From NCBI GenBank assembly GCA_963765675.1, contig CAVXXK010000016.1, positions 1 through 29,152 of the forward strand: 29,152 nucleotides of DNA. Direction: 5' to 3'. The stretch comes from an uncultured delta proteobacterium (GTDB taxonomy: Bacteria; Desulfobacterota; Binatia; Binatales; Binataceae). A program made the translations under genes and the position numbers. Below the pieces are notes generated by a model. That model made no database searches. It worked only from the letters and a program-made list of their open reading frames with translations, and was not told the origin of the DNA. Every line of letters begins with the position of its first letter. Position 1 is the stretch's first letter. This document shows, piece after piece, positions 3,284 to 18,948 of this stretch.

Positions 3284-3607
3284 CTATTCTTCCTCCGCTC
3301 CCGAATTCGAGCGTGTCATAAGCATTCTCTCCCAATCGAATTCGGTGTTCTCACTCGCGAGCCCGTCGTCATCCATAGGCGGACCGCCGGTATAGCGATT
3401 AAGCAGTTCCATTTGCGCTCGAGCGCGCTCCTCGTCGATGCGCTCGATCGCGAATCCGGACTGAATCAGCACCCAGTCACCGACGGATGGCCGGTCCGCG
3501 AGAATTCCGAGGTTGATCTTGCGCGTAACATCGGCGACCTCGACCTCGCCAAGATCGCAATGTTCCGTCTCGATCGAAATGATTCGCCCCGGAATTCCCA
3601 GGCACAT
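3284..3607 (-). CDS. hypC: HypC/HupF family chaperone, second copy, with an acidic C-terminal tail
   Basis: Start re-set to the ATG at 3607 gives MCLGIPG. VGDWVLIQSGFAIERIDE has Gln at the usual His position. Confidence 0.88.
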   Translation of the reverse strand: MCLGIPGRIISIETEHCDLGEVEVADVTRKINLGILADRPSVGDWVLIQSGFAIERIDEERARAQMELLNRYTGGPPMDDDGLASENTEFDWERMLMTRSNSGAEEE

Positions 3608-3627
3608 TAGTTTTTCCAGTCCCGTCG

Positions 3628-4806
3628 TCAGCAGATGCGCGGCAACGGATCTCCGATCAACAGATCCAGAATTCGAGTACCGCCAAAGCATGTCTTCAGC
3701 AGCACAATCCCCACCGGGTCGGCTTTCACTCGGCCGATGATGCTCGCGCCGTCGCCATAGGGCCCGGAGCGAATCGCCGTTAGGACTGCTTGCGCGGATT
3801 CGTCGCCGACGATTGCTACCAGCCTGCCTTCGCAGGCGACGTGAAGCGGATCGATTCCCAGAAGTTCACACGCGCCGGCTACTTCTTCACGAATCGGCAC
3901 GGCGGATTCATCGATCATAATAGCGACTCCCGAAGCCGCCGCGATCTCGTTGAGTACGGTCGCGACGCCGCCCCTGGTCGCGTCACGCATGCATCGCGCC
4001 TGCGGTGCCGCATCGAGGATCCGCTCCACCAGCGCGGCCAGTGGCGCCGTATCCGATGCTATATCGGCTTCGATTTCAAGCTCACCGCGCGCCAGCATGA
4101 TCGTGATCCCGTGCTCCCCGATCGGCCCCGACACAATCACCGCGTCGCCGGGACGGCAGCTCGCGGCGCTGAGGCTCACCGGCCGGTCGATCACGCCGAC
4201 GCCCGAGGTGTTGATGTAGCAGCCGTCGCCTTTCCCTCTTTGCACCACCTTGGTGTCGCCGGTGACGATTTGCATGCCGGCGGCCTGTGCCGCGGATTTC
4301 ATCGAGGTGACGATGCGGCTCAGATCACTAATCGGAAATCCTTCTTCGAGAATGAATCCTGCCGACAAGTAGAGCGGGCGGGCTCCGCCCACCGCGAGGT
4401 CGTTCACCGTTCCGTTTACCGCGAGGTCGCCGATATTTCCGCCAGGAAAAAACAGGGGCGAGACTACGAACGAATCTGTGGTAAAGGCGAGCCGTGCGTC
4501 CCCCACGTGCAGCACCGCTTGATCTTCCATCGCCTCCAGGATCGGATTGCGAAAGCCTTCGAGGAACATCGCCTCGATTAGCGAGTGCGTCGCTTTGCCG
4601 CCGGCTCCGTGTGCGAGCGTGATACGGTCCTCACGGATGCGTGCTTTCCTGGTCCTGGCACCCTCAAGCCGCGCAAGCACGTCGCGCTCCGTGATGCTAC
4701 GTAAATCGTTGGCGGCGTGGTTATGATTCGCGCAGTTTTCGCGAATCGCGTCTTCGGCTCGATCGCCAGACAGAGGATTCGCATCGATGGTGTTTAGCTT
4801 TTGCAT
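3628..4806 (-). CDS. hypE: Carbamoyl dehydratase HypE
   Basis: LAHGAGG, FTTDSFVV, GDTKVV, MRDATRGG and C-terminal LPRIC. The exact start is uncertain because of an N-terminal extension. Confidence 0.97.
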   Translation of the reverse strand: MQKLNTIDANPLSGDRAEDAIRENCANHNHAANDLRSITERDVLARLEGARTRKARIREDRITLAHGAGGKATHSLIEAMFLEGFRNPILEAMEDQAVLHVGDARLAFTTDSFVVSPLFFPGGNIGDLAVNGTVNDLAVGGARPLYLSAGFILEEGFPISDLSRIVTSMKSAAQAAGMQIVTGDTKVVQRGKGDGCYINTSGVGVIDRPVSLSAASCRPGDAVIVSGPIGEHGITIMLARGELEIEADIASDTAPLAALVERILDAAPQARCMRDATRGGVATVLNEIAAASGVAIMIDESAVPIREEVAGACELLGIDPLHVACEGRLVAIVGDESAQAVLTAIRSGPYGDGASIIGRVKADPVGIVLLKTCFGGTRILDLLIGDPLPRIC

Positions 4807-5948
4807 CGTGCGTCAACCGGGTTCGTACCATTCGCGGCGTCGCGAATTCTCTCGCGGGTAAACCGGCCGTAGTTGTAGTACGCGGCACACGCGCCTTCCG
4901 ACGACACCATGCAGCTGCCGATCGGCGTTTCAGGGGTGCATGCGGTTCCGAACACCTTACACTGCCACGGCTTCAACACGCCTTTGAGGACCTCACCACA
5001 CTGGCATGCCTTCGGATCGGCGATGCGCACTCCCGGCAACGCAAAAATTCGCTCGGCGTCATACTCGGCGTAGGCCGCCCGCAACGTGAGCGCTGAATAC
5101 GAGATAAAACCGAGGCCGCGCCACTCGAAGAACGGCCGCAGCTCCATGGTCTCGCTCAAAGCTTTGAGCGCGCGGGAATTGCCGTCCCAGTTCACGGCGC
5201 GCGTGTACTGATTTTCAACTTCAACGCGCCCGTCCGTTATCTGTTTGAGGATCATGTAAATCGATTGCAAGATGTCGAGCGGCTCGAATCCGCCGACCAC
5301 GATCGGTTTGCCATAGTTGCGCGAGATGAATTCATAAGGACGGCATCCGATTATCGTCGACACGTGACCGGGCCCAATAAAGCCGCTGAGCCGCAGGTCG
5401 GGCGAATCGAGGATCGCCTTGATCGCCGGAATGATAGTCACGTGATTGCAGAAAATCGAAAAGTTTTCGATTCCCTCAGCTTTCGCGCGCAGTAGAGTGA
5501 CCGCGGTCGACGGCGCAGTGGTTTCGAAGCCGATCGCGAAGAACACCACGCGCTTATCCGGATTGCGTCGCGCGATACCGAGCGCGTCGAGCGGCGAATA
5601 GACGATCCGGATGTCCGCGCCGCGCGCCTTCGCGTCGAGAAACGATCCGCGTCCGCCTGGCACCCTCATCATGTCGCCGAACGACGTGAAAATCACATCT
5701 TTCTGCTCCGCGATAAAGATGGCATCGTCCAGACGGCCCATCGGGATCACGCAGACTGGGCATCCGGGGCCGTGAACCAGCGTGATATTTGCCGGCAGGT
5801 AATCTTCAAGTCCGTGCTTGTAGATGGTGTGAGTATGGCCGCCGCACACTTCCATGATTTGATAGGGCCGACTTCCCGCGACCTCCGCGATTTGGGCGGC
5901 CAGCCGGTGCGCCAGCGGCTCGGAACGGAATTCGTCGACAAATTTCAT
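4794..5948 (-). CDS. hypD: Hydrogenase maturation scaffold HypD
   Basis: MEVCGGHTH, GPGCPVCV, GFETTAP, PGHVS and C-terminal Fe-S cysteines including CMVSSEGAC. Confidence 0.98.
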   Translation of the reverse strand: MKFVDEFRSEPLAHRLAAQIAEVAGSRPYQIMEVCGGHTHTIYKHGLEDYLPANITLVHGPGCPVCVIPMGRLDDAIFIAEQKDVIFTSFGDMMRVPGGRGSFLDAKARGADIRIVYSPLDALGIARRNPDKRVVFFAIGFETTAPSTAVTLLRAKAEGIENFSIFCNHVTIIPAIKAILDSPDLRLSGFIGPGHVSTIIGCRPYEFISRNYGKPIVVGGFEPLDILQSIYMILKQITDGRVEVENQYTRAVNWDGNSRALKALSETMELRPFFEWRGLGFISYSALTLRAAYAEYDAERIFALPGVRIADPKACQCGEVLKGVLKPWQCKVFGTACTPETPIGSCMVSSEGACAAYYNYGRFTRERIRDAANGTNPVDARCKS

Positions 5949-6628
5949 CGTGCTTCACTCGCCGGGTCGAGAAACGCCTGCGTCACTTCCCAGAGCATGT
6001 GGTAGATGGTGGTTTGGACTTCCTGGATACGATGTACGGAGGGCGAGGGCACTATGAACAGGAAATCCACAGTGCCAGCTTCGGCCATCTTTCCGCCATC
6101 GTAACCGGCGCTTCCGATAGTCATCATTCCGCGGCGATTCGCTGCCTCGAAGGCATTGAGGAGGTTGCGGGAATTGCCACTCGTTGAAAGGCCGAGCGCG
6201 ATATCGCCGCGGCGCCCCAACGCAGAGAGTTGGCGCGCGAATACCATTTCGAATCCGATGTCGTTACCGAGCGCCGTGATTACGGCGATATCCGCCGCGA
6301 GCGAAATCGCCGGTAGCGGCAGCTCGCGCGCTGGATTAAGAAACAAATGCGTAACCGCGTGCGCGTCGGTCGCGCTGCCGCCATTGCCGAAGGAGAACAG
6401 CCGGGCGCCGGCGGCGAACGCATAGGCCATCGCTTCTCCGCAATCGAGCATCCGATCGGAGAGCGCCGCAATAGTGGATTCGCGAAGAGATACTATTTCG
6501 CGGGCCTTGTGCGCGGTCGAAGTGCCCACCTCGGCGAGAACCTTTTCAACGTCATCCGCTTTCGCGTAAAGGAACGGATACAGCTGCTCGAGCCCTCCCG
6601 CGCCGTCTTTTTCGCCATTGCCGCTCAT
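5945..6628 (-). CDS. SIS-domain GmhA (phosphoheptose isomerase)-like protein, copy A
   Basis: GNGGS, GNDIGF, LSTSGNS and RIQE..TIYH are present. The His/Glu of the DAxHxxxE motif are absent (DAHAVTHL). Confidence 0.9.
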   Translation of the reverse strand: MSGNGEKDGAGGLEQLYPFLYAKADDVEKVLAEVGTSTAHKAREIVSLRESTIAALSDRMLDCGEAMAYAFAAGARLFSFGNGGSATDAHAVTHLFLNPARELPLPAISLAADIAVITALGNDIGFEMVFARQLSALGRRGDIALGLSTSGNSRNLLNAFEAANRRGMMTIGSAGYDGGKMAEAGTVDFLFIVPSPSVHRIQEVQTTIYHMLWEVTQAFLDPASEAR

Positions 6629-6846
6629 TTGATCAGTTTTGCTATCGCTTCGCGCGCGTGCACCAGAATCGAATCGCCCGGACCTGCGTCGACCAGCGCG
6701 ACACTCACGACCTCGATTTCGTCGCCAATCTCCACCCGCGCGAGATCGTCATCGAGCATCTCGATCACACGAGCTTCGATCGCGACGTCCGAGCAGGTAA
6801 TGCATACCTGGTCGTGACATTCTGGCGTTTTCGGAACCGCACGCAT
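6625..6846 (-). CDS. Atypical HypC/HupF-like OB-fold protein with a CITC motif
   Basis: ATG at 6846 with GAGG upstream. CHDQVCITCSD...VSVALVDAGPGDSILVHA resembles the HypC core but lacks the N-terminal Met-Cys. Confidence 0.8.
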   Translation of the reverse strand: MRAVPKTPECHDQVCITCSDVAIEARVIEMLDDDLARVEIGDEIEVVSVALVDAGPGDSILVHAREAIAKLIK

Positions 6847-6862
6847 CAGTTTAAGAACCTCA

Positions 6863-7504
6863 TTAGGCGAAGCTGGGGCCGAAAACACCCGGATGCTCGA
6901 AGAACACATGAACTAGCTCCCACAAGATGTGGTAGGTCGTCACCTGAATTTCCTTCGCGATCATCCGGTTGTCAGAATGTGCGATGAATTCGAAATCGAT
7001 CGCCGACCCGCCGCCGGGATGCTCGCTGGCGGTCATCGCGATCGTCAGAAGATTCCGCTCCTGCGCCGCCTGCAGGGCGCGCAGGACGCTTGCCGACAGT
7101 CCGCCCGAATCGATGCCAAGGGCGATATCCTCGGGCGCAGCAAGATGGTGGAGCTGATGCACGAACGCATCGTCGAAGCCGCGCGCGCTCGCGACACCGG
7201 TGATCGTGGCGACGTCGTTAGTGAGTGCGATCGCGGGAAGTGTACGTTTGCCGACGATCACCGGATGAAGGAATTCCACGGCGACGTGTTGTGCGTCGGT
7301 GCTCGATGAACCGGCGCCGAATACGATCAGCTTGCCACCGCGATGAAATCGTTCGGACATCGCATGGCACGCGCGGGCCACCCGTTCCGCATCGCGCGTG
7401 AGCAAACGACCGGCCTCAGATCGGCACGCGAGCGAACGGATCAGGCGTGCGCGCGCCGCGTCGCGGCTGTCAGTGCTCGCTCTCTGATAGAGAATGCTCG
7501 CCAC
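6863..7504 (-). CDS. SIS-domain GmhA-like protein, copy B
   Basis: GGKLIVFGAGSSSTDAQHVAVEF, LPAIAL, DIALGI and KEIQVTTYHILWE. The GTG start overlaps the hypC stop. Confidence 0.88.
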   Translation of the reverse strand: MASILYQRASTDSRDAARARLIRSLACRSEAGRLLTRDAERVARACHAMSERFHRGGKLIVFGAGSSSTDAQHVAVEFLHPVIVGKRTLPAIALTNDVATITGVASARGFDDAFVHQLHHLAAPEDIALGIDSGGLSASVLRALQAAQERNLLTIAMTASEHPGGGSAIDFEFIAHSDNRMIAKEIQVTTYHILWELVHVFFEHPGVFGPSFA

Positions 7505-7782
7505 TAGGCAATCTCGCTTTTCTCGAGGGCGCGAAGCTCGTCCGAATACGCGCTGTCCATTCCGTTTAGGAGCTTGAGCGTGGCCTCGGCTTCCTGTTCA
7601 TCGATTTTGCAGAGCGCGAACCCAACGTGAATCAGCACCCAGTCGCCGACCTGTACCGGGGAGGATTGGTCCTCGAGCAGTTGAATCGAAACGTTGCGCC
7701 TTACGCGGCCGACTTCGGCCTTGGCGATCGCCCGGTCGGCGTCGACGATTTCGATTATTTTCCCCGGTATTCCAAGGCACAT
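7504..7782 (-). CDS. hypC: Hydrogenase chaperone HypC (canonical copy)
   Basis: Start re-set to the ATG at 7782 (AGGAG RBS). MCLGIPG...VGDWVLIHVGFA. Confidence 0.95.
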   Translation of the reverse strand: MCLGIPGKIIEIVDADRAIAKAEVGRVRRNVSIQLLEDQSSPVQVGDWVLIHVGFALCKIDEQEAEATLKLLNGMDSAYSDELRALEKSEIA

Positions 7783-7873
7783 CGCGAATCGTCTCCTTGC
7801 CCCACCCAACCCGCGCGCTTGAGCATCAAGCGTGCTCGGACTTTCACAGAAGCATGCCGAAGCGCTCGACGCC

Positions 7874-7981
7874 CTACATCCGGCTGATGCGCACGTAGCG
7901 CGCGATATCCGGAATAGAGATCACGACGAGCACTCCAACAACGACCGCCACGGCGATTAGTATGCCTATGACACAGGACAT
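7874..7981 (-). CDS. 35-aa single-pass membrane microprotein (resembles the DUF6893-type PDIxRYxRxxxM family)
   Basis: Read directly from the sequence: AGGAGG RBS, then MSCVIGILIAVAVVVGVLVVISIPDIARYVRISRM-TAG. It is below the ORF-track size cutoff and fills the gap between the protease and hypC. Confidence 0.85.
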   Translation of the reverse strand: MSCVIGILIAVAVVVGVLVVISIPDIARYVRISRM

Positions 7982-8004
7982 CACGCCTCCTTGTGAGTTC
8001 CCAT

Positions 8005-8493
8005 TTAGCCTGAAGAAACGGAAACGCTAGCCATCCGTCCTTCAACAATTTCGCGCACTGCGCGGATCGCGTTAGGAATCGCGCGGCTCACAGGTTCGGA
8101 CAATCCTATTTTCTCGCCGAGGTCGGCGGGCTCGCATCCGACTATCAGAACACGCGGCGGCATGCTGTTTCCCAGCGTGCGAACCATAGCGAATACGTTA
8201 TCGAGAGCCATGTCGTGCGAGTCGGAAACGGCGCCGCATCTGACGCCTTCAAGATCCGGTTCGATGACGTAAATAGTTCCGGGCGCGGCACCGCGAGAAA
8301 CCGTATCGACAATGATCACCAGGTCATAGCCGGCGATAAGCTCGTAAGCGAGATGAACTCCGCGAATGCCGAAATCCGTGACGCTGACATCTGTGGACCA
8401 CATTTCGCAGGCGAGACGGCGCGCCACCTCGACACCGAATCCGTCGTCGCCAAGAAAAATATTACCCACGCCGGCGATCAGCACTCGATTCAT
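8005..8493 (-). CDS. Hydrogenase maturation endopeptidase (HupD/HybD/HycI family)
   Basis: GVGNIFLGDDGFG, IIVD, PGTIY, DSH, GCEP and GLSEPV. Confidence 0.95.
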   Translation of the reverse strand: MNRVLIAGVGNIFLGDDGFGVEVARRLACEMWSTDVSVTDFGIRGVHLAYELIAGYDLVIIVDTVSRGAAPGTIYVIEPDLEGVRCGAVSDSHDMALDNVFAMVRTLGNSMPPRVLIVGCEPADLGEKIGLSEPVSRAIPNAIRAVREIVEGRMASVSVSSG

Positions 8494-9821
8494 GTGGTGC
8501 TCTCCGTGAGCGGTTCGACCTCATCGGGCGAGAAATACAGATAACGCCCCTGCGCTTGATAGAGATCAGCGCCCGGATCGTCCTCGAGCGTTACGGCGAC
8601 GTAGTTGCGATTCTCGACATCCAGGAAAACGCCTTCCACCATGCCGACGCGGCCCTCCAGAAACATGTCTTGCGCATCGGCGCGGCGCGCTCCCGGACAT
8701 AAGCGCACGCGACACCCCTTGCGCACTGACACGCCATTAACCTCGACGCTGTCGGTTTCGGGCGACACCGAGGAGTCGGCGCCCGGATCCCACCAAGGCG
8801 CATCGGTAGAAGGCGGCGGCGAGCCCACTGAGCGCAGGGCTCCATGCAACTTGTCGAGCATCTCGGGCGGCATCGCATCGGCGCGTTCGATAATCGCCGC
8901 AGCTCTTTCGTCAGTGGCGCGCGCTTCGCGCTTTTCTTCATCCGTGAGCGTCATGGTGCGAAGCGTGAGAATTTCATCGATCTCGGTCCCATCGAACAGG
9001 TCGCCGGGGCTCTCCGGGGCAATCGCCGGATAGTCCTGAAGAATGATCGGTGACGACAGGAGCATGTCACGGGTGCCGCTTTCGCCAACCAGCACCGGCC
9101 AGGTGCGGACGTTGGAGCATTGCGCGGAGGCCGCACGCGCATACTCAGGCGGATCGGTGAGCGATACGAAATTCCCATCCGTTACCGCCAGCAGCGTATG
9201 CGCCCCGATAAATGAGCCGCGCAACGCTTCGTCGCGTCCCGATTCGATTTCGGGCCACGGAGTCTCGTTCTCGATTCTGATGGTCAGCTTGACGAGTCGA
9301 TCGCCGACGGCAACCGTCGCAAGCCGAATCACGCCGTTCAGAGCGACCATCTCTCTAACGATTCGTGCGACAATGACCCCGCGCAAATTTCCTATCGGTT
9401 CGATGGCAAGCGCGACAGGGAATTCGAAATGAATTTCACGTTCCGGGGCGTCTGTGCTGATCGGAAATTCGAAACCCACCTCTCGCTCGATTCCCTCATC
9501 CCACGAGGCAAACAGCTTTCCATCGATATCGACCGATTCCACTGCTCGGAATGAATCACCGTCGGCTTCTTCAACCGTTCGATGTTGCATCTGGAGAAAA
9601 CGAACGTTTCCGGAGACCCGCGCGTCCGGATGGGCCTCGGCGATGCATTCGGTGCTCATCCACCACTGCTCGCATCCGCCTGACTCGCTCCACTGACGCG
9701 GCGCCAGCAGGCCGAACTGGAAACGCAAACGATTCTTGCGGGCGGAGGCTCGATATGGATACAGGACGTATCCTTCATAGAGCACAGCGTCGGCGATCTT
9801 CTTAGCGCTCTCGAAGCTCAT
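8490..9821 (-). CDS. Conserved group 1h hydrogenase accessory protein (positional HhaC equivalent)
   Basis: ADAVLYEGYVLYPYR, LSSPIILQDYPAIAPESPGDLFDGTEIDEILTLR, LTDEEK; in the conserved position in the operon. Confidence 0.8.
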   Translation of the reverse strand: MSFESAKKIADAVLYEGYVLYPYRASARKNRLRFQFGLLAPRQWSESGGCEQWWMSTECIAEAHPDARVSGNVRFLQMQHRTVEEADGDSFRAVESVDIDGKLFASWDEGIEREVGFEFPISTDAPEREIHFEFPVALAIEPIGNLRGVIVARIVREMVALNGVIRLATVAVGDRLVKLTIRIENETPWPEIESGRDEALRGSFIGAHTLLAVTDGNFVSLTDPPEYARAASAQCSNVRTWPVLVGESGTRDMLLSSPIILQDYPAIAPESPGDLFDGTEIDEILTLRTMTLTDEEKREARATDERAAAIIERADAMPPEMLDKLHGALRSVGSPPPSTDAPWWDPGADSSVSPETDSVEVNGVSVRKGCRVRLCPGARRADAQDMFLEGRVGMVEGVFLDVENRNYVAVTLEDDPGADLYQAQGRYLYFSPDEVEPLTESTT

Positions 9822-10495
9822 CGCGCCGCTCCCTCACCATCGGCAAGAAGAACGTCGAAAACCTGATCCCAACTGGCAAGGGCGAGCGTGGTCTTGAGCC
9901 GCATCAGCTTGTCGAGCGTGTCGCGCCGAAGCCGCAACCATCCGGCGTTCGGATAGTAGAGATCCATCATCTCGCGCCATACGCTGACGGGCATTCGATA
10001 CGACGCCTCCGCATGCCACGGCACCTGACTGACCTGGAAGCCGCTGCCGTTACGGGCGAAAACGGTTCCGCTGAACAGGAGCAACAGCGGAATCTCGCCG
10101 TCGTCGAGTGAATGAAAATACTTGGCGGCGGCGATTTCGAGATCGTAGGTGCATGGCACCGGCAATTCGACCATTTGAGAGCGATCAAACGCAGGCGTCA
10201 GATGAGAGACGTTGGTCCACAAAAAGGGCTTTACGGTATCGCCCCAGCGCGGGGTGTTACCAAACAATTCCTCGAGCCGGCGCTCTTCCGCGTCGGAATA
10301 TCCGCGGCGATTTGGCTCGATTCGAATCTGGCATCGCAGCGCTATCGTATGGATCGGAGGGCCGCTCTCCTGGTCGACACGAATCACGAAGGTCAACGTG
10401 GGGACAGCCGCATAGCGTTCAGGACGCGCCGCTTCGACCTCGAAACGGAACTGTTGCGATAGCGGCGAATTGCCCGGTTGCACAGGACCAGTCAT
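9818..10495 (-). CDS. DUF6084-like group 1h accessory protein (positional HhaB equivalent)
   Basis: LRCQIRIEP.RR.Y, LFG.TPRWG, VPCTYD, KYF.SL.DGEIPLLLLFSGTVF, VPW. Confidence 0.8.
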   Translation of the reverse strand: MTGPVQPGNSPLSQQFRFEVEAARPERYAAVPTLTFVIRVDQESGPPIHTIALRCQIRIEPNRRGYSDAEERRLEELFGNTPRWGDTVKPFLWTNVSHLTPAFDRSQMVELPVPCTYDLEIAAAKYFHSLDDGEIPLLLLFSGTVFARNGSGFQVSQVPWHAEASYRMPVSVWREMMDLYYPNAGWLRLRRDTLDKLMRLKTTLALASWDQVFDVLLADGEGAAR

Positions 10496-11193
10496 CTGCC
10501 GATCCCCGGGCGCAGATCGCCATTGCGTAAGAGTTGTCTGCGGAATGCTGCGGGCTGGCTCCGTTTCCGGATCTTATCGAAGAAGGCATCCACGTCATTC
10601 CAGGCTTGCTCGCCGCCATCGAAGCCCTTCCAGCGACGTCGCATAGTCCCGGTTAGTTCGTAGCAAGCATCGATGGGAACAATGAAACAGTCGAATTCGC
10701 CGTTGCGATGGCCATAAACCAGCAGCGCCTCGACATCGGGCTGCATCGTTTCGAGCATCGGGTTGGCCGCGCGCAGATCGTTCCATGCCCGCAGGTCCAA
10801 CATCGATTCAGTCGCGCCGGCTGGACCGGGATAGAGCGCCACGATTCGCCCGATCAGTGAGTTGTGAAAGAAGAACGCGATTCGCACCGGAATCTGGAAG
10901 GCGTCCCAAGCCGATTGGGTGAGCGCGAAACCGGAATCGTGCAGATAGCGATCCGGGATCGCCCGATAGCGGCGTTGTCCTGCGACCTCCGCCGTGAAGA
11001 GCAGGTAACAGGCGCGGCAGCTGCAGATCAGGTTCCGGCTCTCCATGTTCACCAAATGGGAATGCTCCTCGCTGAGCGCAATGCGGCACATCTCGCATAC
11101 TTCGCCTGCCAGCTTGGTCTGCTCGCGAGAGACGAAAGCGCGCAGGGCGCGCAGATGGGGCGCGGCAGCGGAGATTCGAGGGGCGACGCTCAT
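10492..11193 (-). CDS. DUF5947-like Cys/His-rich group 1h accessory protein (positional HhaA equivalent)
   Basis: Start re-set to the ATG at 11193 (ATGA overlap with the upstream stop). CEMC...HSH...CSCRAC, YPGPAGATES, PDVEALL, VPIDACYEL, WKGFDGG. Confidence 0.8.
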   Translation of the reverse strand: MSVAPRISAAAPHLRALRAFVSREQTKLAGEVCEMCRIALSEEHSHLVNMESRNLICSCRACYLLFTAEVAGQRRYRAIPDRYLHDSGFALTQSAWDAFQIPVRIAFFFHNSLIGRIVALYPGPAGATESMLDLRAWNDLRAANPMLETMQPDVEALLVYGHRNGEFDCFIVPIDACYELTGTMRRRWKGFDGGEQAWNDVDAFFDKIRKRSQPAAFRRQLLRNGDLRPGIGR

Positions 11194-12086
11194 GCCGCGC
11201 CTCCCGCAATGGCGATTCGAACGCCGGAGCCACTCTCGAGCAAGGGAATCGGCTCCAGATGTAATTGTGTGTCGCCGATTGAGCGCCCGGCGAATCGGAC
11301 ATTGTAGCGCTCGGCGCATGACCGGCAGGTAAGCAAGTCGCCTTCCAGGCCTCCGTTTTCCAGTGCCGATCCACACGAGGGGCATCGTCCGCGGTATGCG
11401 TAGAGCTGCTTGCCTACGCGACAGAGCATAATGCGCTCGCCGGTAACTTCGGTCGCGAGCAATTCGCCGGATTGGCGAGGCGGTTGCTGCTCGAGCGCGA
11501 TCCATTCGGGGAGTTTGGCGGCGGCACTCCCATTGCCGTTAGTGCCGTTGACGTGCGATTTCGCGATCATCGAATTCAACGGATTCTTGTGCTCGGTAAT
11601 ACCTTCGACCTCAATTCTGGCGATTTCCGGAGCGAGTTCCTTGATCGCACTTTCAACGGTGAGCTTCACCGTCAAGGCTGACGACGGGCACCCGTCGCAA
11701 GTTCCGTCCAGGCGGAGCTTCACCACGCCGGCCGTCTCATCCACGCCCACCACCGCCACGTCACCGCCGTGCGATCCCAGATAAGGCCGCACGCGATCGA
11801 GAGCGCGCGCAACACGAGCGGCAGTGTCCTCCGGATGAAGTCCGTGAAGCAGCATGAGGCTCGCGAGGAGTTCGTCCTCCAGCACGCGCTCGCGCAATTT
11901 GTCGATTGTCAGATCCGTGTCGAGCAGGTCGACGAACCGGGTCAGGCCGGCTCCGTACAACTCTACCACCAGACGCATCAGCTCCTCGACGCGCGGCCAG
12001 GTCGATGGCTCGGCCATCGCGCGAAGCTCGTCGAGTAATTTCTCGATCCGTTCTCCAGCGCGCCGGAAATTATCATCAGAGTTCAT
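11190..12086 (-). CDS. hhyE: NifU/NfuA-domain Fe-S protein with a C-terminal Rieske-fold domain (HhyE-like)
   Basis: LLHGLHP, VRPYLGSHGGDV, LDGTCDGCPSS; C-terminal YAYRGRCPSC...LTCRSC; immediately downstream of the large subunit. Confidence 0.82.
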   Translation of the reverse strand: MNSDDNFRRAGERIEKLLDELRAMAEPSTWPRVEELMRLVVELYGAGLTRFVDLLDTDLTIDKLRERVLEDELLASLMLLHGLHPEDTAARVARALDRVRPYLGSHGGDVAVVGVDETAGVVKLRLDGTCDGCPSSALTVKLTVESAIKELAPEIARIEVEGITEHKNPLNSMIAKSHVNGTNGNGSAAAKLPEWIALEQQPPRQSGELLATEVTGERIMLCRVGKQLYAYRGRCPSCGSALENGGLEGDLLTCRSCAERYNVRFAGRSIGDTQLHLEPIPLLESGSGVRIAIAGGAA

Positions 12087-12099: not shown

Positions 12100-13869
12100 T
12101 CACACGGTGTGAATCATCGACGGCGAATGGATTTGCTTAAGCACCCGGCCGTGACCCAGATGCATATGGACGCCGCACGGCAGACATGGATCGAAGCTAC
12201 GCACGGTGCGCATAATATCGATTCCCCGGAAAGCCGGACCGGGTCCGTTGTCCTCGAAAATCGGCGTGTTCTGCACTGCGTCTTCGTAAGGGCCGGGAAC
12301 GCCATGCGAATCGCGCGGACTCGCGTTCCACGGAGTCGGGGGATACGGATGGTAGTTCGCGATCTTCCCGTCCCGGATAACCATGTGATGAGAGAGCACA
12401 CCACGCACCGCCTCGGTGAACCCGCATCCGATTCCGTCCCGTGGAACCTTGAACTCATTCCAGGTCTTGGTGCGTCCTTGGCGGACTTCCTTCAGTCCCT
12501 GCTCGACGAAGTACAGCGCAGCCGCAGCGGCGTAGGCCTGGAAATAAGTGCGCGCGCGATCGCGCTCGATGGTGTTGCTCCACTTCGGAATTTTCCATTC
12601 CAGCGTAACCGGCCCTTTGGTCGCGGACTTGGGGAAATTGAATACCACGCTGTTGCCGGTGGATTTCACGTATCCAATATCGACCAGCTTCGCCAAAGCC
12701 GTCGCCCATAGGCGCGCGAGCGGGCCGCCGCCGGTGTCGAGGGGAAGATCGTCCTTTCCGTCGTTCCATCGCGGCGACATGACCCACGTGTATTTGTCGC
12801 CTAGCTGGCGCTTCTGCGGCCTCGGTATGGTGTGCTGATTCCACGGATGGCGCGGGTCGACCCTGTTGCCCAGCGGATCCTCGCGCACGAACATCTCCTT
12901 GCCTTCCCAGTCCTCGTAGTAAGAGCTGCCGAGCAGGATTCTGATTCCCAGGTTGATCTTGACCAGGTCGTTGGTGACCAGTTTGCCGTCGACCACCACG
13001 CCCGGCGTTACGAACATGTGCCGGCCCCATTCGGTCATGTCGCGATAGTTAAAGTTGCATACGTTGGGATCCTGAAATGCGCCCCAGCATCCGAGCAGTA
13101 TCCGCCGGTTTCCAACTTGCTCGTAGCCGGGCATCGCCTCGTAAAAGAAATCGAAGAGGTCATCGTGCATCGGAACCGCACGCTTCACGAATTCGACGTA
13201 GCGCATCAAACGCGACAGGTAATCGGTAAGCAGCTGCACCGATGGCACCGTGCCGACACCTCCCGGATACAGGGTCGAGGGATGAACGTGGCGGCCTTCC
13301 ATCAGGCAGAACATTTCACGCGTGTAACGGCTCGTCTGGAGCGCTTCGCGATAGAAGTCTCCCTCGAGCGGATTGACCGCTTTCATGATGTCGCCGATGG
13401 TTCGGTAGCCGTGGTCCGCGGCATGCGGAGCCTCGGTCTTGGCGGCTTTTTCCCAGACCCCCGGATTCGTCGCGCGGACCATTTTCTCGCAAAAATCTAC
13501 CGCGACCAGGTTTTCCTGGAAGATGCAGTGATCGAACATATACTCGGCGGCTTCCCCGAGGTTGACAATCCATTCGCCGAGATGCGGCGGTTGCACGCCA
13601 TACGCCATGTTCTGGCAGTAACAGGAACAAGTGGCGTGATTGTCGCCGCAGATTCCGCATATGCGGCTGGTGATGAAGTGGGCATCGCGTGGATCCTTGC
13701 CCTGCATGAAGATGCTATAGCCACGAAACACCGACGAGGTGCTATAGCATTCGGCAACTCTCCGGTTGGAGAAATCGATCTTAGTATAGATTCCGAGACT
13801 GCCCACGATGCGGGTGATCGGATCCCAGTTCATCTCGACCAGATTGCCTTGAGTTGAGGCAGCACTCAT
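12100..13869 (-). CDS. hhyL: Group 1h [NiFe]-hydrogenase large subunit
   Basis: WDPITRIVGSLG, L1 motif TSRICGICGDNH, L2 motif SFDPCLPCGVH followed by a cleavable C-terminal tail. Start re-set to the ATG at 13869 (GGAGG/GAGG RBS). Confidence 0.96.
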   Translation of the reverse strand: MSAASTQGNLVEMNWDPITRIVGSLGIYTKIDFSNRRVAECYSTSSVFRGYSIFMQGKDPRDAHFITSRICGICGDNHATCSCYCQNMAYGVQPPHLGEWIVNLGEAAEYMFDHCIFQENLVAVDFCEKMVRATNPGVWEKAAKTEAPHAADHGYRTIGDIMKAVNPLEGDFYREALQTSRYTREMFCLMEGRHVHPSTLYPGGVGTVPSVQLLTDYLSRLMRYVEFVKRAVPMHDDLFDFFYEAMPGYEQVGNRRILLGCWGAFQDPNVCNFNYRDMTEWGRHMFVTPGVVVDGKLVTNDLVKINLGIRILLGSSYYEDWEGKEMFVREDPLGNRVDPRHPWNQHTIPRPQKRQLGDKYTWVMSPRWNDGKDDLPLDTGGGPLARLWATALAKLVDIGYVKSTGNSVVFNFPKSATKGPVTLEWKIPKWSNTIERDRARTYFQAYAAAAALYFVEQGLKEVRQGRTKTWNEFKVPRDGIGCGFTEAVRGVLSHHMVIRDGKIANYHPYPPTPWNASPRDSHGVPGPYEDAVQNTPIFEDNGPGPAFRGIDIMRTVRSFDPCLPCGVHMHLGHGRVLKQIHSPSMIHTV

Positions 13870-13963
13870 CCTCGAAACCTCCAACGAAATTGGGGCCTGC
13901 GCCCCCCGGACCATGTGGCATACTGGTCGCGGGTCGTGACTGGTTGTTAAGACCTAAAGATCA

Positions 13964-15010
13964 CTATTCCGCGTACCAGCGCGGCCTATATCCGGTGCGC
14001 AACTGCTGGCCCGGCCTGCGCCACTTCGGCTCCTTGTTGAGAGTGTGCTGAGTAAGGCTGCGGAGCGACCGAATCAGGGCGCCATAGCCGCTGATCAAAG
14101 CGCTGGAAAGCTTGCCGCCTGGTGGCTCATCCATGAACGGCATGAATTTATCGGGGAATCCCGGCATGGTGCATCCGATACAGATTCCTCCCACATTGGG
14201 GCATCCGCCGATCCCACCCATCCATCCCCGTTTCGGCACGTTGCAGTTAACGACTGGGCCCCAGCACCCGATCTTCACTAGACATTTTTGCGAACCGTAC
14301 GCCTTGCCAAAATCGCCCTGCTCGTAATAGCCGGCGCGATCGCATCCCTCATGGACAGTCTGTTCGAACAGCCATTTCGGACGATGCTCCTTGTCGAGAG
14401 GAATCATCGGTGCCTGCCCCGCTGCCTGGTAGAGCAGGTATGCGATAGTCTCCGAAAGGTTATCAGGCTGAATCGGACATCCGGGCACACATACGATGGG
14501 AATTCCCGCGTGTGATTTCCAATCCCACCCGAGATAGTCGAGCACTCCCATTGCACCGGTCGGATTATTCGACATCGCATGGATTCCGCCGTACGTGGCG
14601 CAAGTGCCGACCGCCAGCACCAGCAAAGCCTTCGGAGCCAGGCGATCGATCCATTCGCTGGTGGTGATCGGTTGCCCGGTCGCTGGGTCGTTGCCGAAGC
14701 CCGACCAGTATCCCTCTTTTTTTATCTTCTCGTTGGGGATCGATCCCTCGATCACGAGCACGAACGGATTGATTTCTCCGCGTGCGCCCTTAAAGAACCA
14801 TTCGATGAAATCATCATTGCTGCCGACCGGGCCTGTCTCGGGCGCGATCAGCGGCCAATGGACATCGACCTTGGGGAGGCCCGGCAACGTGCCGAGCACG
14901 ATATCCTCAATGCTGGGTTGCATGGCCGCGGTCAGCGCGACGGAATCACCGTCACAACTCAGACCCGCGTTGATCCAGAGAACGTGAACGACGGTTTCTT
15001 TGTCGGGCAT
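13964..15010 (-). CDS. hhyS: Group 1h [NiFe]-hydrogenase small subunit
   Basis: LSCDGDSV (CxxD proximal ligand pattern), GTCATYGG, PGCP, VHEGCDR, CLVKIGCWGP, CPNVGGICIGC; no Tat signal peptide. Confidence 0.96.
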   Translation of the reverse strand: MPDKETVVHVLWINAGLSCDGDSVALTAAMQPSIEDIVLGTLPGLPKVDVHWPLIAPETGPVGSNDDFIEWFFKGARGEINPFVLVIEGSIPNEKIKKEGYWSGFGNDPATGQPITTSEWIDRLAPKALLVLAVGTCATYGGIHAMSNNPTGAMGVLDYLGWDWKSHAGIPIVCVPGCPIQPDNLSETIAYLLYQAAGQAPMIPLDKEHRPKWLFEQTVHEGCDRAGYYEQGDFGKAYGSQKCLVKIGCWGPVVNCNVPKRGWMGGIGGCPNVGGICIGCTMPGFPDKFMPFMDEPPGGKLSSALISGYGALIRSLRSLTQHTLNKEPKWRRPGQQLRTGYRPRWYAE

Positions 15011-15067: not shown

Positions 15068-15083
15068 AGCAATAGCGATGCCA
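15068..15083 (-). promoter_or_regulatory. Sigma54 (-24/-12) promoter for the hhySL operon
   Basis: The minus strand reads TGGCATCGCTATTGCT, matching TGGCA-N6-TTGC with exact GG-N10-GC spacing, about 58 nt before the hhyS ATG. A sigma54 activator gene is nearby. Confidence 0.85.
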
Positions 15084-15211
15084 TTGCCGAGCCATGTTCA
15101 GCCGAGCGTACGAGGCATGATCCGTTGCGCAAACGAGGAGTCGCGAAGCCAATGTCTGCGCTGAATTCGAACTTTTGCAAGTAGTAGCGTCCCGCGATGC
15201 GCGCGCTGTGA

Positions 15212-15228
15212 TGCGACACTATGCGACA
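15212..15228. promoter_or_regulatory. Tandem TGCGACA-N3-TGCGACA, candidate upstream activator sequence
   Basis: TGCGACA at 15212-15218 and 15222-15228 (10-bp period), about 130 bp upstream of the hhyS -24 element. Confidence 0.6.
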
Positions 15229-15322
15229 GCGAGCGCGTATAAATTTGGACAGATGGGGCTATATTTGATGGCCTAAACACCAGGTAGGAACACTCGATGA
15301 CTATGATCATGTTCGTGCGGAG

Positions 15323-15339
15323 TGTCGCAGGGTGTCGCA
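15323..15339. promoter_or_regulatory. Tandem TGTCGCA-N3-TGTCGCA, an inverted copy of the 15212-15228 site and candidate UAS
   Basis: TGTCGCA at 15323-15329 and 15333-15339, about 95 bp upstream of the plus-strand -24 element. Confidence 0.6.
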
Positions 15340-15433
15340 GCAACAGCACTTCGATCTCAGCCGTAATGTTGAACAATATTTCAGGACACGGCGGAGTTTT
15401 CGAAAAACTCGAATTCGAAGTGAGATTTGTGGC

Positions 15434-15449
15434 TGGAACACTTAATGCT
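15434..15449 (+). promoter_or_regulatory. Candidate sigma54 promoter for the pseudo-receiver-PAS gene
   Basis: TGGAACACTTAATGCT with GG-N10-GC spacing, about 66 nt before the ATG at 15516. Confidence 0.6.
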
Positions 15450-15515
15450 CCAAATCCGCGGACAGTTCCCGCTTCCCCAACAGAGCGCCACCTGGCGCAG
15501 CGCTAAAGAGCATGT

Positions 15516-16250
15516 ATGCGGTCGCGTCCTGCCCGAATTCTCTTATCAGAGGCGCCCGGCCCGTCCGCCGAGGCCATGAAGACCAGATTGATCAAGCGAG
15601 GATATCTGGTTGCGTGTAGCGGTTGTGACGAGGCACCTGAGACGCTTGATAGTCTGCGTCCGAACCTCGCAATCGTCAGGGTAGACCCGCTGAAGCCTCA
15701 CGATGCGACCGGGAATATCGAGGAGATCGGCGGACGGTTGGATGTGCCGGCAGTTTTCCTAGGGACACCCGCTGATCTAGCGCTTGTACGGCCCGTTAAG
15801 GGCTCGAATTTCTATGGATATCTACTGGAGCCGTTCGACGACTTGGAGCTGGACTTGGTCCTCGAGACCGCGCTTGACCGCCATCGAACCGAACGAAATC
15901 TTCGCGAGAGTGAGCAATGGCTAAGGGCGATTCTGCGCAGTATTGGACACGGTGTGGTCGCGACTGACGCCGCGTGGCGAGTGCGGTTTATCAATCCTGC
16001 CGCCGAAGAGCTCACCGGATGGATTGCGGACGAGGCAATTGGCCGTGCCCTTTCGGAAGTCGTGTCGGTGTCGATCTCAGCTCCGGAATTGATCCGCGGC
16101 GGCCGAGCGCAGGGTGTGTTGCACCATCGCGCTGGAAAAGAGGTCCCAATCGAGGAAAGCAGCACCACGATTCGCAATGAGGAGGGGAAGGTGATCGGCT
16201 CGGTGATTGCGATCGGCGCGGTGGCCGAGCCCTCACGCAACTGCAAATGA
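15516..16250 (+). CDS. Pseudo-receiver (REC-like) + coiled coil + PAS protein with no output domain
   Basis: REC-like N-terminus (RILLSE...GY.V...RPNLAIVRVD...VPAVFLG...YGYLLEPF), linker LRESEQWL, PAS SIGHGVVATD...FINPAAEELTGW...IRNEEGKVIG. Confidence 0.85.
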   Translation: MRSRPARILLSEAPGPSAEAMKTRLIKRGYLVACSGCDEAPETLDSLRPNLAIVRVDPLKPHDATGNIEEIGGRLDVPAVFLGTPADLALVRPVKGSNFYGYLLEPFDDLELDLVLETALDRHRTERNLRESEQWLRAILRSIGHGVVATDAAWRVRFINPAAEELTGWIADEAIGRALSEVVSVSISAPELIRGGRAQGVLHHRAGKEVPIEESSTTIRNEEGKVIGSVIAIGAVAEPSRNCK

Positions 16251-16261
16251 AATGGAAATTT

Positions 16262-17236
16262 CTATTGCTTGGACCTTATCTCACTGCGCAGCCGGCGATA
16301 GACCGTGGAGCGGTGGATTCCAAGGCGGCGCGCCGTTTCGGATACGTTGTGCTGGCTGGCGTCGAAAACCGCCTTCAGCGCGACGATCGCCCCATCGCTG
16401 GGATTGCTGCCTGAATCATTTTCGCTGCGCTTGATTCCCCTCGCGAGCTGAGTGCGATGCCACAACTCGGACGGAAGATCGGCAGGCATCAGTCGATCGC
16501 GCGATGAAACCAGAATAGTCCTGAGCAGGACGTTGCGCAGCTCGCGCGCATTACCCGGCCAAGGATAGGGACAGGACTCGAGCGCCTGCCACACCCCGTC
16601 GTCCACTTCGCCCAGGTAATGCAATTCCTCGCGCAGGCATTTTTCCGCTATTGGCCGGATGTCCTGGCGACGGTCGCGCAGCGCCGCAATTTCGATCGAG
16701 AGGCAATTGAGGCGGTAGATCAAATCGGAGCGGATCCGGCCGTCGCTCAATTCCTCGATTGGAATGTTGGTCGCGACCACCACCCGTACCCCGCAATGGA
16801 CTTGTTGGGTGCCTCCAACGCGAACAAAACGGCCGGTTTCCAAAAACCGCAGCAACACGCTTTGAGGGGTAGGTGGCAGATCTTGAAATTCGTCGAGGAA
16901 CAGCGTGCCTTCCCGCGCAGCGTCGAAAAACCCTTGATGGGCGTGTCGGTCGGCGCCGGTGAACGATCCCGGTTCATATCCGCACAGCTCCGGAATCGCT
17001 ATTTCTCCGCATAGCATTCCGCAATTCACGGCGACGAATGGACCGCGGCGGCGCGCGCTCGCGTTGTGGATCGCGTGGGCGATCAATTCCTTACCGGTCC
17101 CTGACTCGCCTACCAGCACCACCGGGTAGTCGGCCCGCGCGGCGTGGTGCGCAAGCTCGATGGTTTGGCGCAGTTGCCTGCTGACACCCAGGATGTCGTT
17201 GAAAGTGTAACGTGCGGTCCAAGCCTCGGTATTCAT
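16262..17236 (-). CDS. Sigma54-dependent enhancer-binding activator (AAA+ plus Fis HTH) lacking an N-terminal sensory domain
   Basis: Walker A GESGTGKE, GSFTGA loop, Walker B LFLDE, RSDLIYRLN, WPGNARELRN, HTH NVSETARRLGIHRSTVYRRL; the AAA+ domain starts about 10 aa from the N-terminus. Confidence 0.95.
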   Translation of the reverse strand: MNTEAWTARYTFNDILGVSRQLRQTIELAHHAARADYPVVLVGESGTGKELIAHAIHNASARRRGPFVAVNCGMLCGEIAIPELCGYEPGSFTGADRHAHQGFFDAAREGTLFLDEFQDLPPTPQSVLLRFLETGRFVRVGGTQQVHCGVRVVVATNIPIEELSDGRIRSDLIYRLNCLSIEIAALRDRRQDIRPIAEKCLREELHYLGEVDDGVWQALESCPYPWPGNARELRNVLLRTILVSSRDRLMPADLPSELWHRTQLARGIKRSENDSGSNPSDGAIVALKAVFDASQHNVSETARRLGIHRSTVYRRLRSEIRSKQ

Positions 17237-18186
17237 GTGAGACTCCGGAGGATGAGGCTGCGATTTAATCGGGGGCCGATTCCACCCCTAACGCTTCGGG
17301 CGCGTAACCACTGGTACCATGGATCAAGCCCGTCCCCTGTGCGAGCAGAGACGCGCATTATCTCGAGCTTGGGATTAACCTCGCGCGCAAATTGAGAGCA
17401 TCGCTCGATGTCGAATTCCAGATGCGGAATCAGATCGATCTTGTTGATCAGCATCACGCCTGCGGCGCGGAACATATGCGGGTACTTGAGCGGCTTGTCC
17501 TCGCCCTCGGTCACCGACATTATTACGACCTTTTCCGCTTCCCCCAGGTCGAACAACGCGGGACAAACGAGATTGCCAACGTTCTCGATGATCACCAGCG
17601 AGTGCGCGGGCGGAGCCAGCTTACGAAGCGCCGCGGAGACCATTTGGGCGTCGAGATGGCACCCGCTGCCGGTGTTGATCTGGATCGCCCGGGCGCCCGC
17701 CTTGCGAATCCGCTCGGCATCGCGCACGGTTTCCTGGTCGCCCTCGATCACTGAAAGCCGCACTTCTTTCGCGAGATCGGCGAGCGTGCGCTCCAGCAGC
17801 GTGGTCTTGCCCGCTCCTGGCGAGCTCATCAGGTTGAGCGCGAGGATTCCGCGGCCTTCGAACCATCCGCGATTTCGCTCCGCCATGAGATCATTCTTCG
17901 CTAAGACATTCTGTTCGAAACGAATAATGCGGCTCGCTTTGTGATCGTTCATCGCGCCGCCAGCGCGTGCGTCACCGGCGTGCTCTCGAGGATAGAGATC
18001 ATGTGCATGCCCATGATCATGTTCGTGTGCATGCTCCTGGCGGTGGTCGTGAGAGACGTCGGTATGGGCATGCGGGTGGTCGGGCCCAGGAGAGTGTTCA
18101 TGGGGATGGCCGTGCGCGGACGGTCTCTCGGCAGGATCGGTGATTTGCACAGACGAAGCATCGGAGCAGCCGCAGGTGTCACACAT
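17233..18186 (-). CDS. hypB: Nickel-insertion GTPase HypB with N-terminal CxxCGC and a His-rich region
   Basis: MCDTCGC, His-rich linker, SSPGAGKT, GCHLDA, ENVGNLVCP, EGEDKPLKYP, NKID. Confidence 0.97.
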   Translation of the reverse strand: MCDTCGCSDASSVQITDPAERPSAHGHPHEHSPGPDHPHAHTDVSHDHRQEHAHEHDHGHAHDLYPREHAGDARAGGAMNDHKASRIIRFEQNVLAKNDLMAERNRGWFEGRGILALNLMSSPGAGKTTLLERTLADLAKEVRLSVIEGDQETVRDAERIRKAGARAIQINTGSGCHLDAQMVSAALRKLAPPAHSLVIIENVGNLVCPALFDLGEAEKVVIMSVTEGEDKPLKYPHMFRAAGVMLINKIDLIPHLEFDIERCSQFAREVNPKLEIMRVSARTGDGLDPWYQWLRARSVRGGIGPRLNRSLILRSLT

Positions 18187-18517
18187 GGGAGGCTACCTCA
18201 ACTTCTTTGATTCGCAGCTCGGTGCCGCCACTAAATTCGAGGTTGGCACTGCCGCAGTGGCACAACGCGATGGGACCGTCGACTTCGATTCGCGCGCCGC
18301 ATTCGCGGCATCGAGCCCGTCCCGGCGTCTCAATGATGTCGAGCACGGCGCCGACAAGTGGCGTTCCGTGGGCCGCGATATCGAAGCAGAAGCGGACTGC
18401 ATCGGGAACCACGCCAGAAAGTTTGCCGATTTCGAGCAGTACCCGAGTCACCTTGGTATCACGGACACGGTCAGTTATCGCCTCAATGACACTCTCAGTG
18501 ATTGCGAGTTCGTGCAC
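18179..18517 (-). CDS. hypA: Nickel metallochaperone HypA
   Basis: Start re-set to the GTG at 18517 gives MHELAI. IGKLSGV, CREC, LCHCGS, GTELRIKEVEV. Confidence 0.95.
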   Translation of the reverse strand: MHELAITESVIEAITDRVRDTKVTRVLLEIGKLSGVVPDAVRFCFDIAAHGTPLVGAVLDIIETPGRARCRECGARIEVDGPIALCHCGSANLEFSGGTELRIKEVEVASHV

Positions 18518-18948
18518 CGCCAGGATCTCATCAGGGAAGTATCGGTTGTCTTTCCAGTCAACTCGCTTTTTGCGCGCGATGTCAAGAAGAATTTTGAGAA
18601 GACATTGCAAAGGCTTGCCTCGCCATGAATAAGCGAGGATTCGAGCGGGCTGCGGGGCGCAGCTTTCTGGATTTGGTCGCCGGGAAAAGGGAGCTGTATC
18701 GAATCAACCGGATTGCAAAGTTTGCACTACTCGCCGCCGTAATAGCTGTCCCTACCAAATATCTCATCTGAACGAGAATTAGGACAGGTGAAAGAGCCGC
18801 AGCTCCGTTAGCGGCTCTCTGACCATCACTGGCAACGCGTCCAATGGACAACAGGTCGTGAGTCTGAGTGGCACCGGCACCTGAGCCGGGCAGCAGTCGA
18901 GAGAGCCAGGCTAGCAAGCGGAACTGGCCAGCCGGCCCATCAATCGCG

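Follow-up and report, generated by a model that had tools for sequence, protein, structure and literature searches.

A stripped-down sigma-54 activator and a pseudo-receiver/PAS partner as candidate regulators of a group 1h [NiFe]-hydrogenase in a Binatia-type bacterium

Introduction

The uptake of atmospheric H2 by soils depends on group 1h [NiFe]-hydrogenases; to our knowledge, their regulators are largely unknown. In the HoxBC-HoxJ-HoxA system of Cupriavidus necator and the HupUV-HupT-HupR system of Rhodobacter and Bradyrhizobium, a sensory hydrogenase acts on a PAS histidine kinase, which acts on an NtrC-type activator; HoxBC and HoxJ form a physical complex. Some sigma-54 activators have no regulatory domain and are controlled in trans, as is the case in the PspF-PspA and HrpR/HrpS-HrpV systems, and the expression of pspA is itself sigma-54-dependent. 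In the NifL-NifA system, a PAS-containing anti-activator acts by protein contact on an enhancer-binding protein (EBP). The analysis presented here concerns a stretch of 29 kb (the window), which is the entire contig CAVXXK010000016.1 of a 4.5-Mb Binatia-type bin (genome G000). It encodes a group 1h hydrogenase (HhyS and HhyL) and its maturation proteins, a predicted sigma-54 EBP (the activator, P0001), the nickel proteins HypA and HypB, and a small protein with receiver-like (REC) and PAS parts (REC-PAS, P0004). Judging from these genes and their relatives, it appears that a stripped-down sigma-54 activator, together with a small partner, turns on the genes used to scavenge H2 from the air; the two would be the remnant of a fuller, hydrogenase-linked signalling chain, which is complete in related bacteria.

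The general scheme of sensory-hydrogenase/two-component control of C. necator is outlined in the introduction of PMC13098282 (2026), and the conclusion of that article lists the induction of Hhy as a still-open question. The literature searched contains no description of sigma-54 or EBP control of 1h hydrogenases, and the titles and abstract openings of the Binatia hydrogenase literature give no sign of regulation. This agrees with the initial annotation of the window, made from its letters, which knew of no described equivalent for group 1h.

A sigma-54 activator devoid of sensor domain

Pfam places an AAA+ domain (PF00158, E 5.5e-51) at residues 16–181 of the activator, followed by an AAA lid and by HTH_8 at residues 287–317. 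The Walker A (GESGTGKE) and Walker B (LFLDE) motifs and the GSFTGA loop are intact. AAA+ with Walker motifs, a GAFTGA-type loop and a C-terminal HTH are the features by which a sigma-54 EBP is recognized, and the activator is predicted to be one. The gene for sigma-54, rpoN, is present in G000 and in 5/5 other genomes checked, and candidate −24/−12 promoters with upstream sites are found at the putative targets (see below).

No REC domain was found on P0001 in the Pfam search, so that the receiver carried by HoxA/HupR-type activators is missing. The frame extends by just 17 codons 5' of the ATG, to 341 aa in all, and the gene therefore has no hidden N-terminal sensor domain. The absence of an N-terminal regulatory domain is the feature of the domain-less activators of the PspF/HrpS type, which also consist only of AAA+ and HTH and have a small partner encoded nearby. 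The description given in the initial annotation, an activator with an intact AAA+ core and HTH and no regulatory domain, thus stands, and the size of the whole family agrees with it: about 80 of the 120 listed clusters (P0005–P0084) are 57–95% identical to the activator and all are at most 368 aa long, while the next tier of listed clusters has at most 45% identity and mostly bears REC or PAS domains. The HTH segment is invariant in 19/19 family sequences, and the open frame of the activator is the smallest among the 18 sigma-54 activators of G000.

None of the 25 listed NCBIfam models reaches its cut-off with this protein. Orthology to PspF was rejected (TIGR02974, 187.9 bits for a cut-off of 443.55); the NifA model gives 213 bits for a cut-off of 528.85. 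Unlike in the PspF/HrpS systems, the activator is therefore no PspF orthologue, and its partner is a REC/PAS protein which is unrelated to PspA or HrpV.

Among 201 Binatia genomes, 5 have an orthologue of the EBP and 9 have HhyL. All five EBP genomes carry an HhyL type which is 81–82% identical to that of the window, and the four genomes with only the 70–73% type are all without the EBP; this co-occurrence is a pattern rather than a statistic, the related genomes not being independent. A phylum-wide search around G000 found the orthologue in 1 of 401 genomes, G000 alone, and a search of family f9 found it in 3 of 25, all of them found before. None of 301 sampled Acidobacteriota genomes has an orthologue at E 1e-78 or better. 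A genome scan with the family alignment was discarded; it returned generic patterns, its 80 loci being all other EBPs (at most 46% identity) and none having hhyS or hhyL nearby.

Members of the family share three cysteines, numbered here as in P0001. C85 lies in ELCGYE, a segment that reads ELFGHE in other EBPs; C200 is the second; and C222 belongs to two extra residues inserted ahead of WPGN. None of the five generic EBPs that were aligned has any of them. These cysteines might serve as a redox or metal site.

Promoters and TGTCGC arrays between hhyS and the REC-PAS gene

It had been proposed that sigma-54 acts at both the hhySL-hyp operon and the REC-PAS gene. This prediction is borne out at the level of motifs: sigma-54-type promoters precede both genes (Table 1) and are conserved with varying spacers. 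The hhyS promoter is one of just two matches with one mismatch to the sigma-54 consensus in the window. Two arrays of 20 nt each, candidate upstream activating sites, lie between the two promoters and each is oriented to its own promoter, in such a way that the region is made of two mirror-image units. The tandem TGTCGC-N4-TGTCGC is found in 3 copies in the 4.5-Mb genome, including the two described here; the third (C1:1616445) is located within a 371-aa open reading frame (ORF) and was set aside as probably due to chance.

Ten EBP-linked loci, from four lineages, were compared: the window clade (the window, L095, L096, L098 and L103), L101, the genus g25 (L089–L091) and G032/L141. The close relatives L093–L098 are from metagenomes, and their activator is 86–95% identical to that of the window. 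A footprint alignment of the window with four close relatives shows the two promoters and the two arrays as invariant blocks and the promoter spacers as variable. The hhyS promoter stands at 72–74 nt in window-clade members, and the REC-PAS promoter is conserved in 5/5 of them, with a varying spacer.

The signature extends to the distant loci of g25, L101 and G032 (the latter from another family), whose activators are 59–66% identical. A GG-N10-GC motif, counted when at least 8 of 11 consensus positions match, is present 72–180 nt upstream of hhyS in 10/10 EBP-linked loci. Clusters of TGTCGC/GCGACA half-sites are found upstream of hhyS in nine of them; L089 has one exact half-site. The controls were 25 hhyS loci from 18 of the 301 Acidobacteriota genomes, all without the activator, and none of them has either such a promoter in the 200 nt or two half-sites in the 600 nt ahead of hhyS. 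Leaving out one genome changes nothing.

An inverted pair of GAATTCGAA-containing elements, at 15163–15176 and 15403–15419, is located with one element between each array and its promoter. These elements are conserved in the clade alignment and are possibly a site for a bending protein.

Two paralogous 1h small/large subunit pairs are encoded side by side in L089–L091 (Binatia of genus g25) and in several Acidobacteriota (L110–L134). The identity to the HhyS of the window is about 71–74% for the 'A' type and about 63–69% for the 'B' type. The sigma-54/TGTCGC signature is confined to the 'A' type hhyS.

The partner protein has lost its phospho-acceptor residues

In P0004, Pfam recognizes only a PAS domain, in the C-terminal half, with no REC match; the N-terminal half has a low-scoring similarity to the receiver of YycF (E about 1e-3). 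The AF2 model (pLDDT 78.7) shows five strand/helix pairs followed by a long helix. Taken together, the model and the YycF receiver matches indicate a (beta-alpha)5 receiver fold. The structural neighbours that Foldseek gave for the model are all generic PAS and REC domains, the FAD-PAS of NifL among them, and offer no clue to a ligand.

The canonical partners (in g25, G032 and the metagenome clusters P0147–P0152) have VEDE (one VEDQ), LMD, LTA and KPF (one KPY) at the receiver positions where the window clade has SEAP, VRV, LGT and EPF. The acidic pair, the phospho-acceptor Asp, the conserved Thr/Ser and the Lys are all lost in the window clade. By these residues the receiver of the window lineage is a pseudo-receiver, as the initial annotation had named it. 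One REC-PAS homologue has no receiver at all. The dN/dS ratio is 0.09–0.19 for the PAS domain versus 0.22–0.43 for the REC-like part; these ranges exclude the near-identical pair L096/L095.

The REC-PAS family is small (17 family clusters). Its gene and that of the EBP are adjacent and convergent in the window clade and g25, adjacent and divergent in L101. A close orthologue (47% identity) was found in just one of five genomes searched, the EBP genome G032. In the HhyL genomes without the EBP, REC-PAS has only 31–34% matches within larger kinases (G003 and G106) or no match at E 1e-15 or better (G192 and G010). The G032 REC-PAS gene follows a small-subunit/kinase fusion gene which diverges from hhyS, and the ORFs that flank the EBP gene of G032 bear no resemblance to REC-PAS. 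Of the arrangement on which the initial annotation was built, hypAB-activator with REC-PAS, it is the presence of REC-PAS near the EBP that recurs, in several gene orders, while the linkage to hypAB varies.

As in NifL-NifA, a PAS sensor protein is encoded beside an EBP. Unlike here, NifA keeps a GAF domain, NifL lacks a receiver and ends in a kinase-like part, and no specific sequence relationship to NifL-NifA was found. The idea that REC-PAS was split by gene fission from a PAS-EBP was rejected, the similarity being that of generic PAS domains (24–33% identity).

Relatives have a kinase and a second small subunit

The circuit had been thought to be sensor-less by design. The relatives do not support this view: their canonical REC-PAS genes are preceded by the gene of a PAS-PAS_3-HisKA_2-HATPase kinase, together with a second 1h-type small subunit. 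The gene order in g25 is hhyS(B)-hhyL(B)-kinase-REC-PAS (the kinase was located by tblastn). In G032 (L141, G032:C80, 1699–4038, plus strand), a single frame of 779 aa joins a 1h-type small subunit to a PAS_3-HisKA_2-HATPase kinase. Its small-subunit part has Oxidored_q6, NiFe_hyd_SSU_C and the Fe-S cysteine motifs; there is no large-subunit gene beside it and REC-PAS comes next. The fusion recurs in independent assemblies (P0157, 761 aa, 77% identical over the full length), and four more small-subunit/PAS proteins are shorter (P0198, P0201, P0203 and P0207).

A kinase orthologue is present in 4/4 other EBP genomes. In G000, none was found at E 1e-40 or better among 33 candidates scored. The window has only one hhyS, and G000 gave a single HhyL match. 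A sensor hydrogenase and its cognate PAS kinase are thus encoded with the regulator in g25 and G032 and not in the window. Since G000 is without the kinase and no phospho-acceptor residue is left in the receiver, the window is, in terms of gene content, a reduced derivative of a fuller signalling chain. It matches the predicted layout of G032 (hhyS, enhancer sites, divergent sensor operon), with the kinase gene apparently gone and the receiver decayed.

The likeness to HoxBC-HoxJ-HoxA is that the genes of a PAS kinase and of a hydrogenase-type module are linked (in the relatives) and that the activator of uptake-hydrogenase genes is of the NtrC family; the small-subunit/kinase fusion of the relatives mirrors the HoxBC-HoxJ complex. 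Unlike in HoxBC-HoxJ-HoxA, the parts are group 1h-like and not group 2b, the kinase of the relatives is of the HisKA_2/HWE type, the response regulator is split into the REC-PAS protein and a receiver-less AAA+-HTH protein, and the target is a 1h enzyme; the window has in addition neither the kinase nor a second small-subunit gene, and its receiver is dead. As far as sequences can tell, the module is real and conserved, and is a variant built from 1h parts with a split regulator, a HisKA_2 kinase and a 1h target.

Two B-type hhy clusters (L139, G003:C31, 7726–13345; L140, G106:C127, 3676–9477), from genomes without the activator, end in hypA-hypB. After hypB they encode the same PAS-HisKA_2 kinase as the relatives above, an 887–904-aa REC-PAS-GAF-GAF-HisKA-HATPase hybrid kinase and a 115–117-aa single receiver.

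The hypA-hypB-activator unit

The genes hypA, hypB and that of the activator form one unit on the minus strand, tail-to-tail with the REC-PAS gene. The overlap of 8 nt between hypA and hypB (18179–18186), reported at the outset, is real. The ATGA at 17233–17236, which holds both the TGA of hypB and the ATG of the activator gene, exists as well; it is not conserved, the hypB stop being 24–29 nt ahead of the activator ATG in 6/6 translated close relatives (L093–L098). A comparison of the junctions shows an indel at the 3' end of hypB in the window (17236–17300): the last ~20 codons are frame-shifted and unrelated to the C-terminus in the relatives. From this comparison, the ATGA overlap is a window-specific frameshift, a local accident and no conserved design for coupling. 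GGAG is found 7 nt ahead of the activator ATG in the window and in all relatives compared, and because it is kept throughout, the co-transcription of hypA, hypB and the activator gene is still likely.

The main hhySL-maturation operon lacks hypA and hypB, and the copy of hypB in the window is the only one in G000. The statement that the activator is coupled to hypAB, apart from the main operon, is correct for the window; the linkage between hypAB and the EBP is also present in the rest of the window clade and in G032, and it is missing in g25 (3 genomes) and L101. The coupling of the activator to hypAB is, on this distribution, lineage-specific.

In G032, a 232-aa ORF lies between hypB and the activator gene (L088, G032:C52, 2934–3632, minus strand) and has a weak partial match to the HoxN/NixA nickel transporters (E 6e-5).

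A scan for the sigma-70 consensus 5' of hypA gave 0 matches. A TTGACA box upstream of hypA, seen by eye, is common to the window and L093–L096. In the window, a GG-N9-GC near-match at 18590–18625, upstream of hypA, is one base short of the sigma-54 spacing; in L098, GGGCAT-N5-TTGCA at ~8620–8640 has the correct spacing and is located 102 nt before hypA.

Proposed mechanism and alternatives

The balance of these observations tilts towards control of the group 1h (high-affinity type) hydrogenase, via sigma-54, by a reduced version of a hydrogenase-linked signalling cascade. The EBP would bind the TGTCGC arrays through its invariant Fis-type HTH, use ATP to open the sigma-54 complexes at both promoters and thereby turn on the hhySL-maturation operon and the REC-PAS gene. 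In the order put forward initially, the nickel chaperones and the activator would be made first and hhy afterwards. Since in the relatives the canonical REC-PAS sits behind a kinase, and a second 1h-type small subunit either precedes this kinase or is fused with it, the ancestral chain may have run from a hydrogenase-borne H2 or redox signal to the kinase, REC-PAS, the EBP, sigma-54 and hhySL. The window lineage has neither kinase, second hydrogenase nor live receiver, so control would come from the amount of EBP made together with HypA and HypB, from the PAS domain, which is still strongly conserved, and from an autoregulatory loop, REC-PAS being itself predicted to be sigma-54-driven. By analogy with PspA or HrpV, REC-PAS would most likely be an anti-activator that contacts the EBP directly and exerts a negative feedback; as with pspA, the partner gene of the window clade is itself predicted to be sigma-54-dependent.

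Several observations weigh against this cascade. Sigma-54-like matches are at chance level over the whole window (28 found, 27.9 expected), and for this reason the case for the promoters rests on their position and conservation. The 10 EBP-linked loci represent only four lineages, whose members are not independent. No sigma-54 motif or half-site cluster precedes the REC-PAS or EBP gene in g25; the feedback loop on REC-PAS is therefore not general. REC-PAS and the EBP are on different contigs in G032. In L101, the frame is broken in both the activator and the REC-PAS genes (578–898 and 1202–1223). In the genomes of family f4, the kinase and a hybrid kinase that contains REC-PAS are encoded near hhy and no orthologue of the EBP is present, so the kinase/REC-PAS pair can work without this EBP. 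A genome of the same genus (G044) has neither hhyL nor the activator, and the contig is a 29-kb member of a bin.

Frame breaks are also observed in the activator and REC-PAS genes of L098 (10683–10687 and 11165–11168). Those of L098 and L101 are either sequencing errors or the mark of decaying copies.

A more ambitious version of the cascade, which may be entertained tentatively, is that REC-PAS is a new adaptor in a three-piece split NtrC-like regulator. An H2 or redox signal would pass through the small subunit and the kinase, which would phosphorylate REC-PAS, and the latter would gate the EBP by contact; the window lineage would have been rewired to a phosphorylation-independent, autoregulated PAS sensor tied to the expression of the nickel chaperones.

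It is unlikely, in our opinion, that the activator is governed by its own level alone and is constitutively active once made, REC-PAS being a mere target which signals elsewhere or has no role in hhy expression. Some domain-less EBPs, such as HrpR/S, are indeed governed by their own level, the receiver is dead in the window, and the f4 genomes use modules of the REC-PAS type without this EBP. However, REC-PAS stays by the EBP across three gene orders, its PAS domain is under strong purifying selection (the dN/dS values given above), its homologues are few and its one close orthologue among the genomes searched is in the EBP genome G032.

The loss of every signature residue of the receiver, the further alteration of its first strand in L095 and L096 and the frameshift at the 3' end of hypB could also be taken as signs of decay: the pseudo-receiver protein would have become functionless after the loss of the kinase, with hhy being driven from its sigma-54 promoter by an always-on activator. 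This is quite improbable, since the REC-PAS ORF is intact in the window, L093–L096 and L103 (it is in two tblastn pieces in L098), dN/dS remains under 0.2 in PAS and under 0.45 in the REC-like part, and the sigma-54 promoter of REC-PAS is conserved in 5/5 clade members.

The cascade in its original, literal form assumed that translation links hypAB to the activator by design, that HypB reports nickel to the activator and that this arrangement is the core of the circuit. The two gene overlaps are real, hypB is a single-copy gene, and G032 has the same linkage, with a weakly HoxN/NixA-like ORF in between; nevertheless, the stop/start overlap stems from a frameshift specific to the window, where 6/6 close relatives have a spacer, the EBP exists without hypAB in g25 and L101, and no feature ties HypB to the EBP, all of which makes this form very improbable.

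The least probable explanation is a feedback at the RNA level, in which the sigma-54-driven transcript of REC-PAS would continue as antisense RNA into the activator gene that converges with it, and that of the activator gene into REC-PAS, with mutual interference: the two stop codons are only 11 nt apart, with no terminator-like fold between the genes (z 0.20; the scan was at chance level), and both the window clade and g25 retain the convergent arrangement, but the genes are divergent in L101 and on separate contigs in G032, REC-PAS has no sigma-54 promoter in g25, and the conservation of the PAS protein would be left unexplained.

If the split-regulator reading is true, it would describe the first dedicated H2-responsive control of the high-affinity group 1h hydrogenases. 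The conserved promoter, enhancer site and activator are concrete, clonable parts for the study of 1h regulation in a heterologous host, and the kinase/small-subunit fusions of the relatives suggest that some 1h-type proteins are H2 or redox sensors. The comparison would also illustrate how a two-component pathway decays after the loss of its kinase, with a dead receiver, a retained PAS domain and a new autoregulatory promoter.

Other features of the locus

The predicted features of the window are listed in Table 1. The large subunit clearly belongs to group 1h (the Hhy or actinobacterial type) by its similarity to solved structures, because it scores 1085 bits with HofG (5aa5_C) and only 161 bits with the runner-up. 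The accessory region encodes NifU/Rieske, DUF5947 and DUF6084 proteins, a 443-aa ORF, a hycI-type protease, copies of hypC, SIS proteins, and hypD, hypE and hypF. In a longer frame of hypA, with a TTG start, residue 33 is the first of the Pfam HypA match.

Table 1. Predicted genes and candidate regulatory elements of the hydrogenase locus, with positions in the window
Feature	Position	Strand	Remarks
Accessory/maturation genes co-directional with hhySL, ~12 kb	677–12086	-	Pfam
hhyL, group 1h large subunit	12100–13914	-	Closest solved structure 5aa5_C (HofG)
hhyS, group 1h [NiFe]-hydrogenase small subunit	13964–15010	-	Pfam
Candidate −24/−12 promoter of the hhySL-maturation operon, TGGCAT-N5-TTGC	15069–15083	-	58 nt before the hhyS ATG
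Upstream activating array 2 (candidate), TGTCGCA-N3-TGTCGCA	15209–15228	-	127–146 nt upstream of the hhyS −24 element
Upstream activating array 1 (candidate), TGTCGCA-N3-TGTCGCA	15323–15342	+	93–112 nt upstream of the REC-PAS −24 element
Candidate −24/−12 promoter of the REC-PAS gene, TGGAAC-N5-ATGC	15434–15448	+	
Pseudo-receiver/PAS gene, 244 aa (P0004)	15516–16250	+	Convergent with the activator gene, divergent from hhyS
Sigma-54 EBP, 324 aa, AAA+ and Fis-type HTH only (P0001)	16262–17236	-	
hypB, GTPase with His-rich N-terminus	17233–18186	-	NCBIfam HypB, 354 and 293 bits
hypA, nickel metallochaperone, first gene of the unit	18179–18517	-	GTG start; Pfam HypA, E 7.5e-29

The sequence 5' of hypA is not common to the window and its relative L096. 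Because of this, and because the genome of the same genus mentioned above is without hhyL and the activator, the block from hypA to hypF looks like an accessory island. The GC content is uniform along the whole contig.

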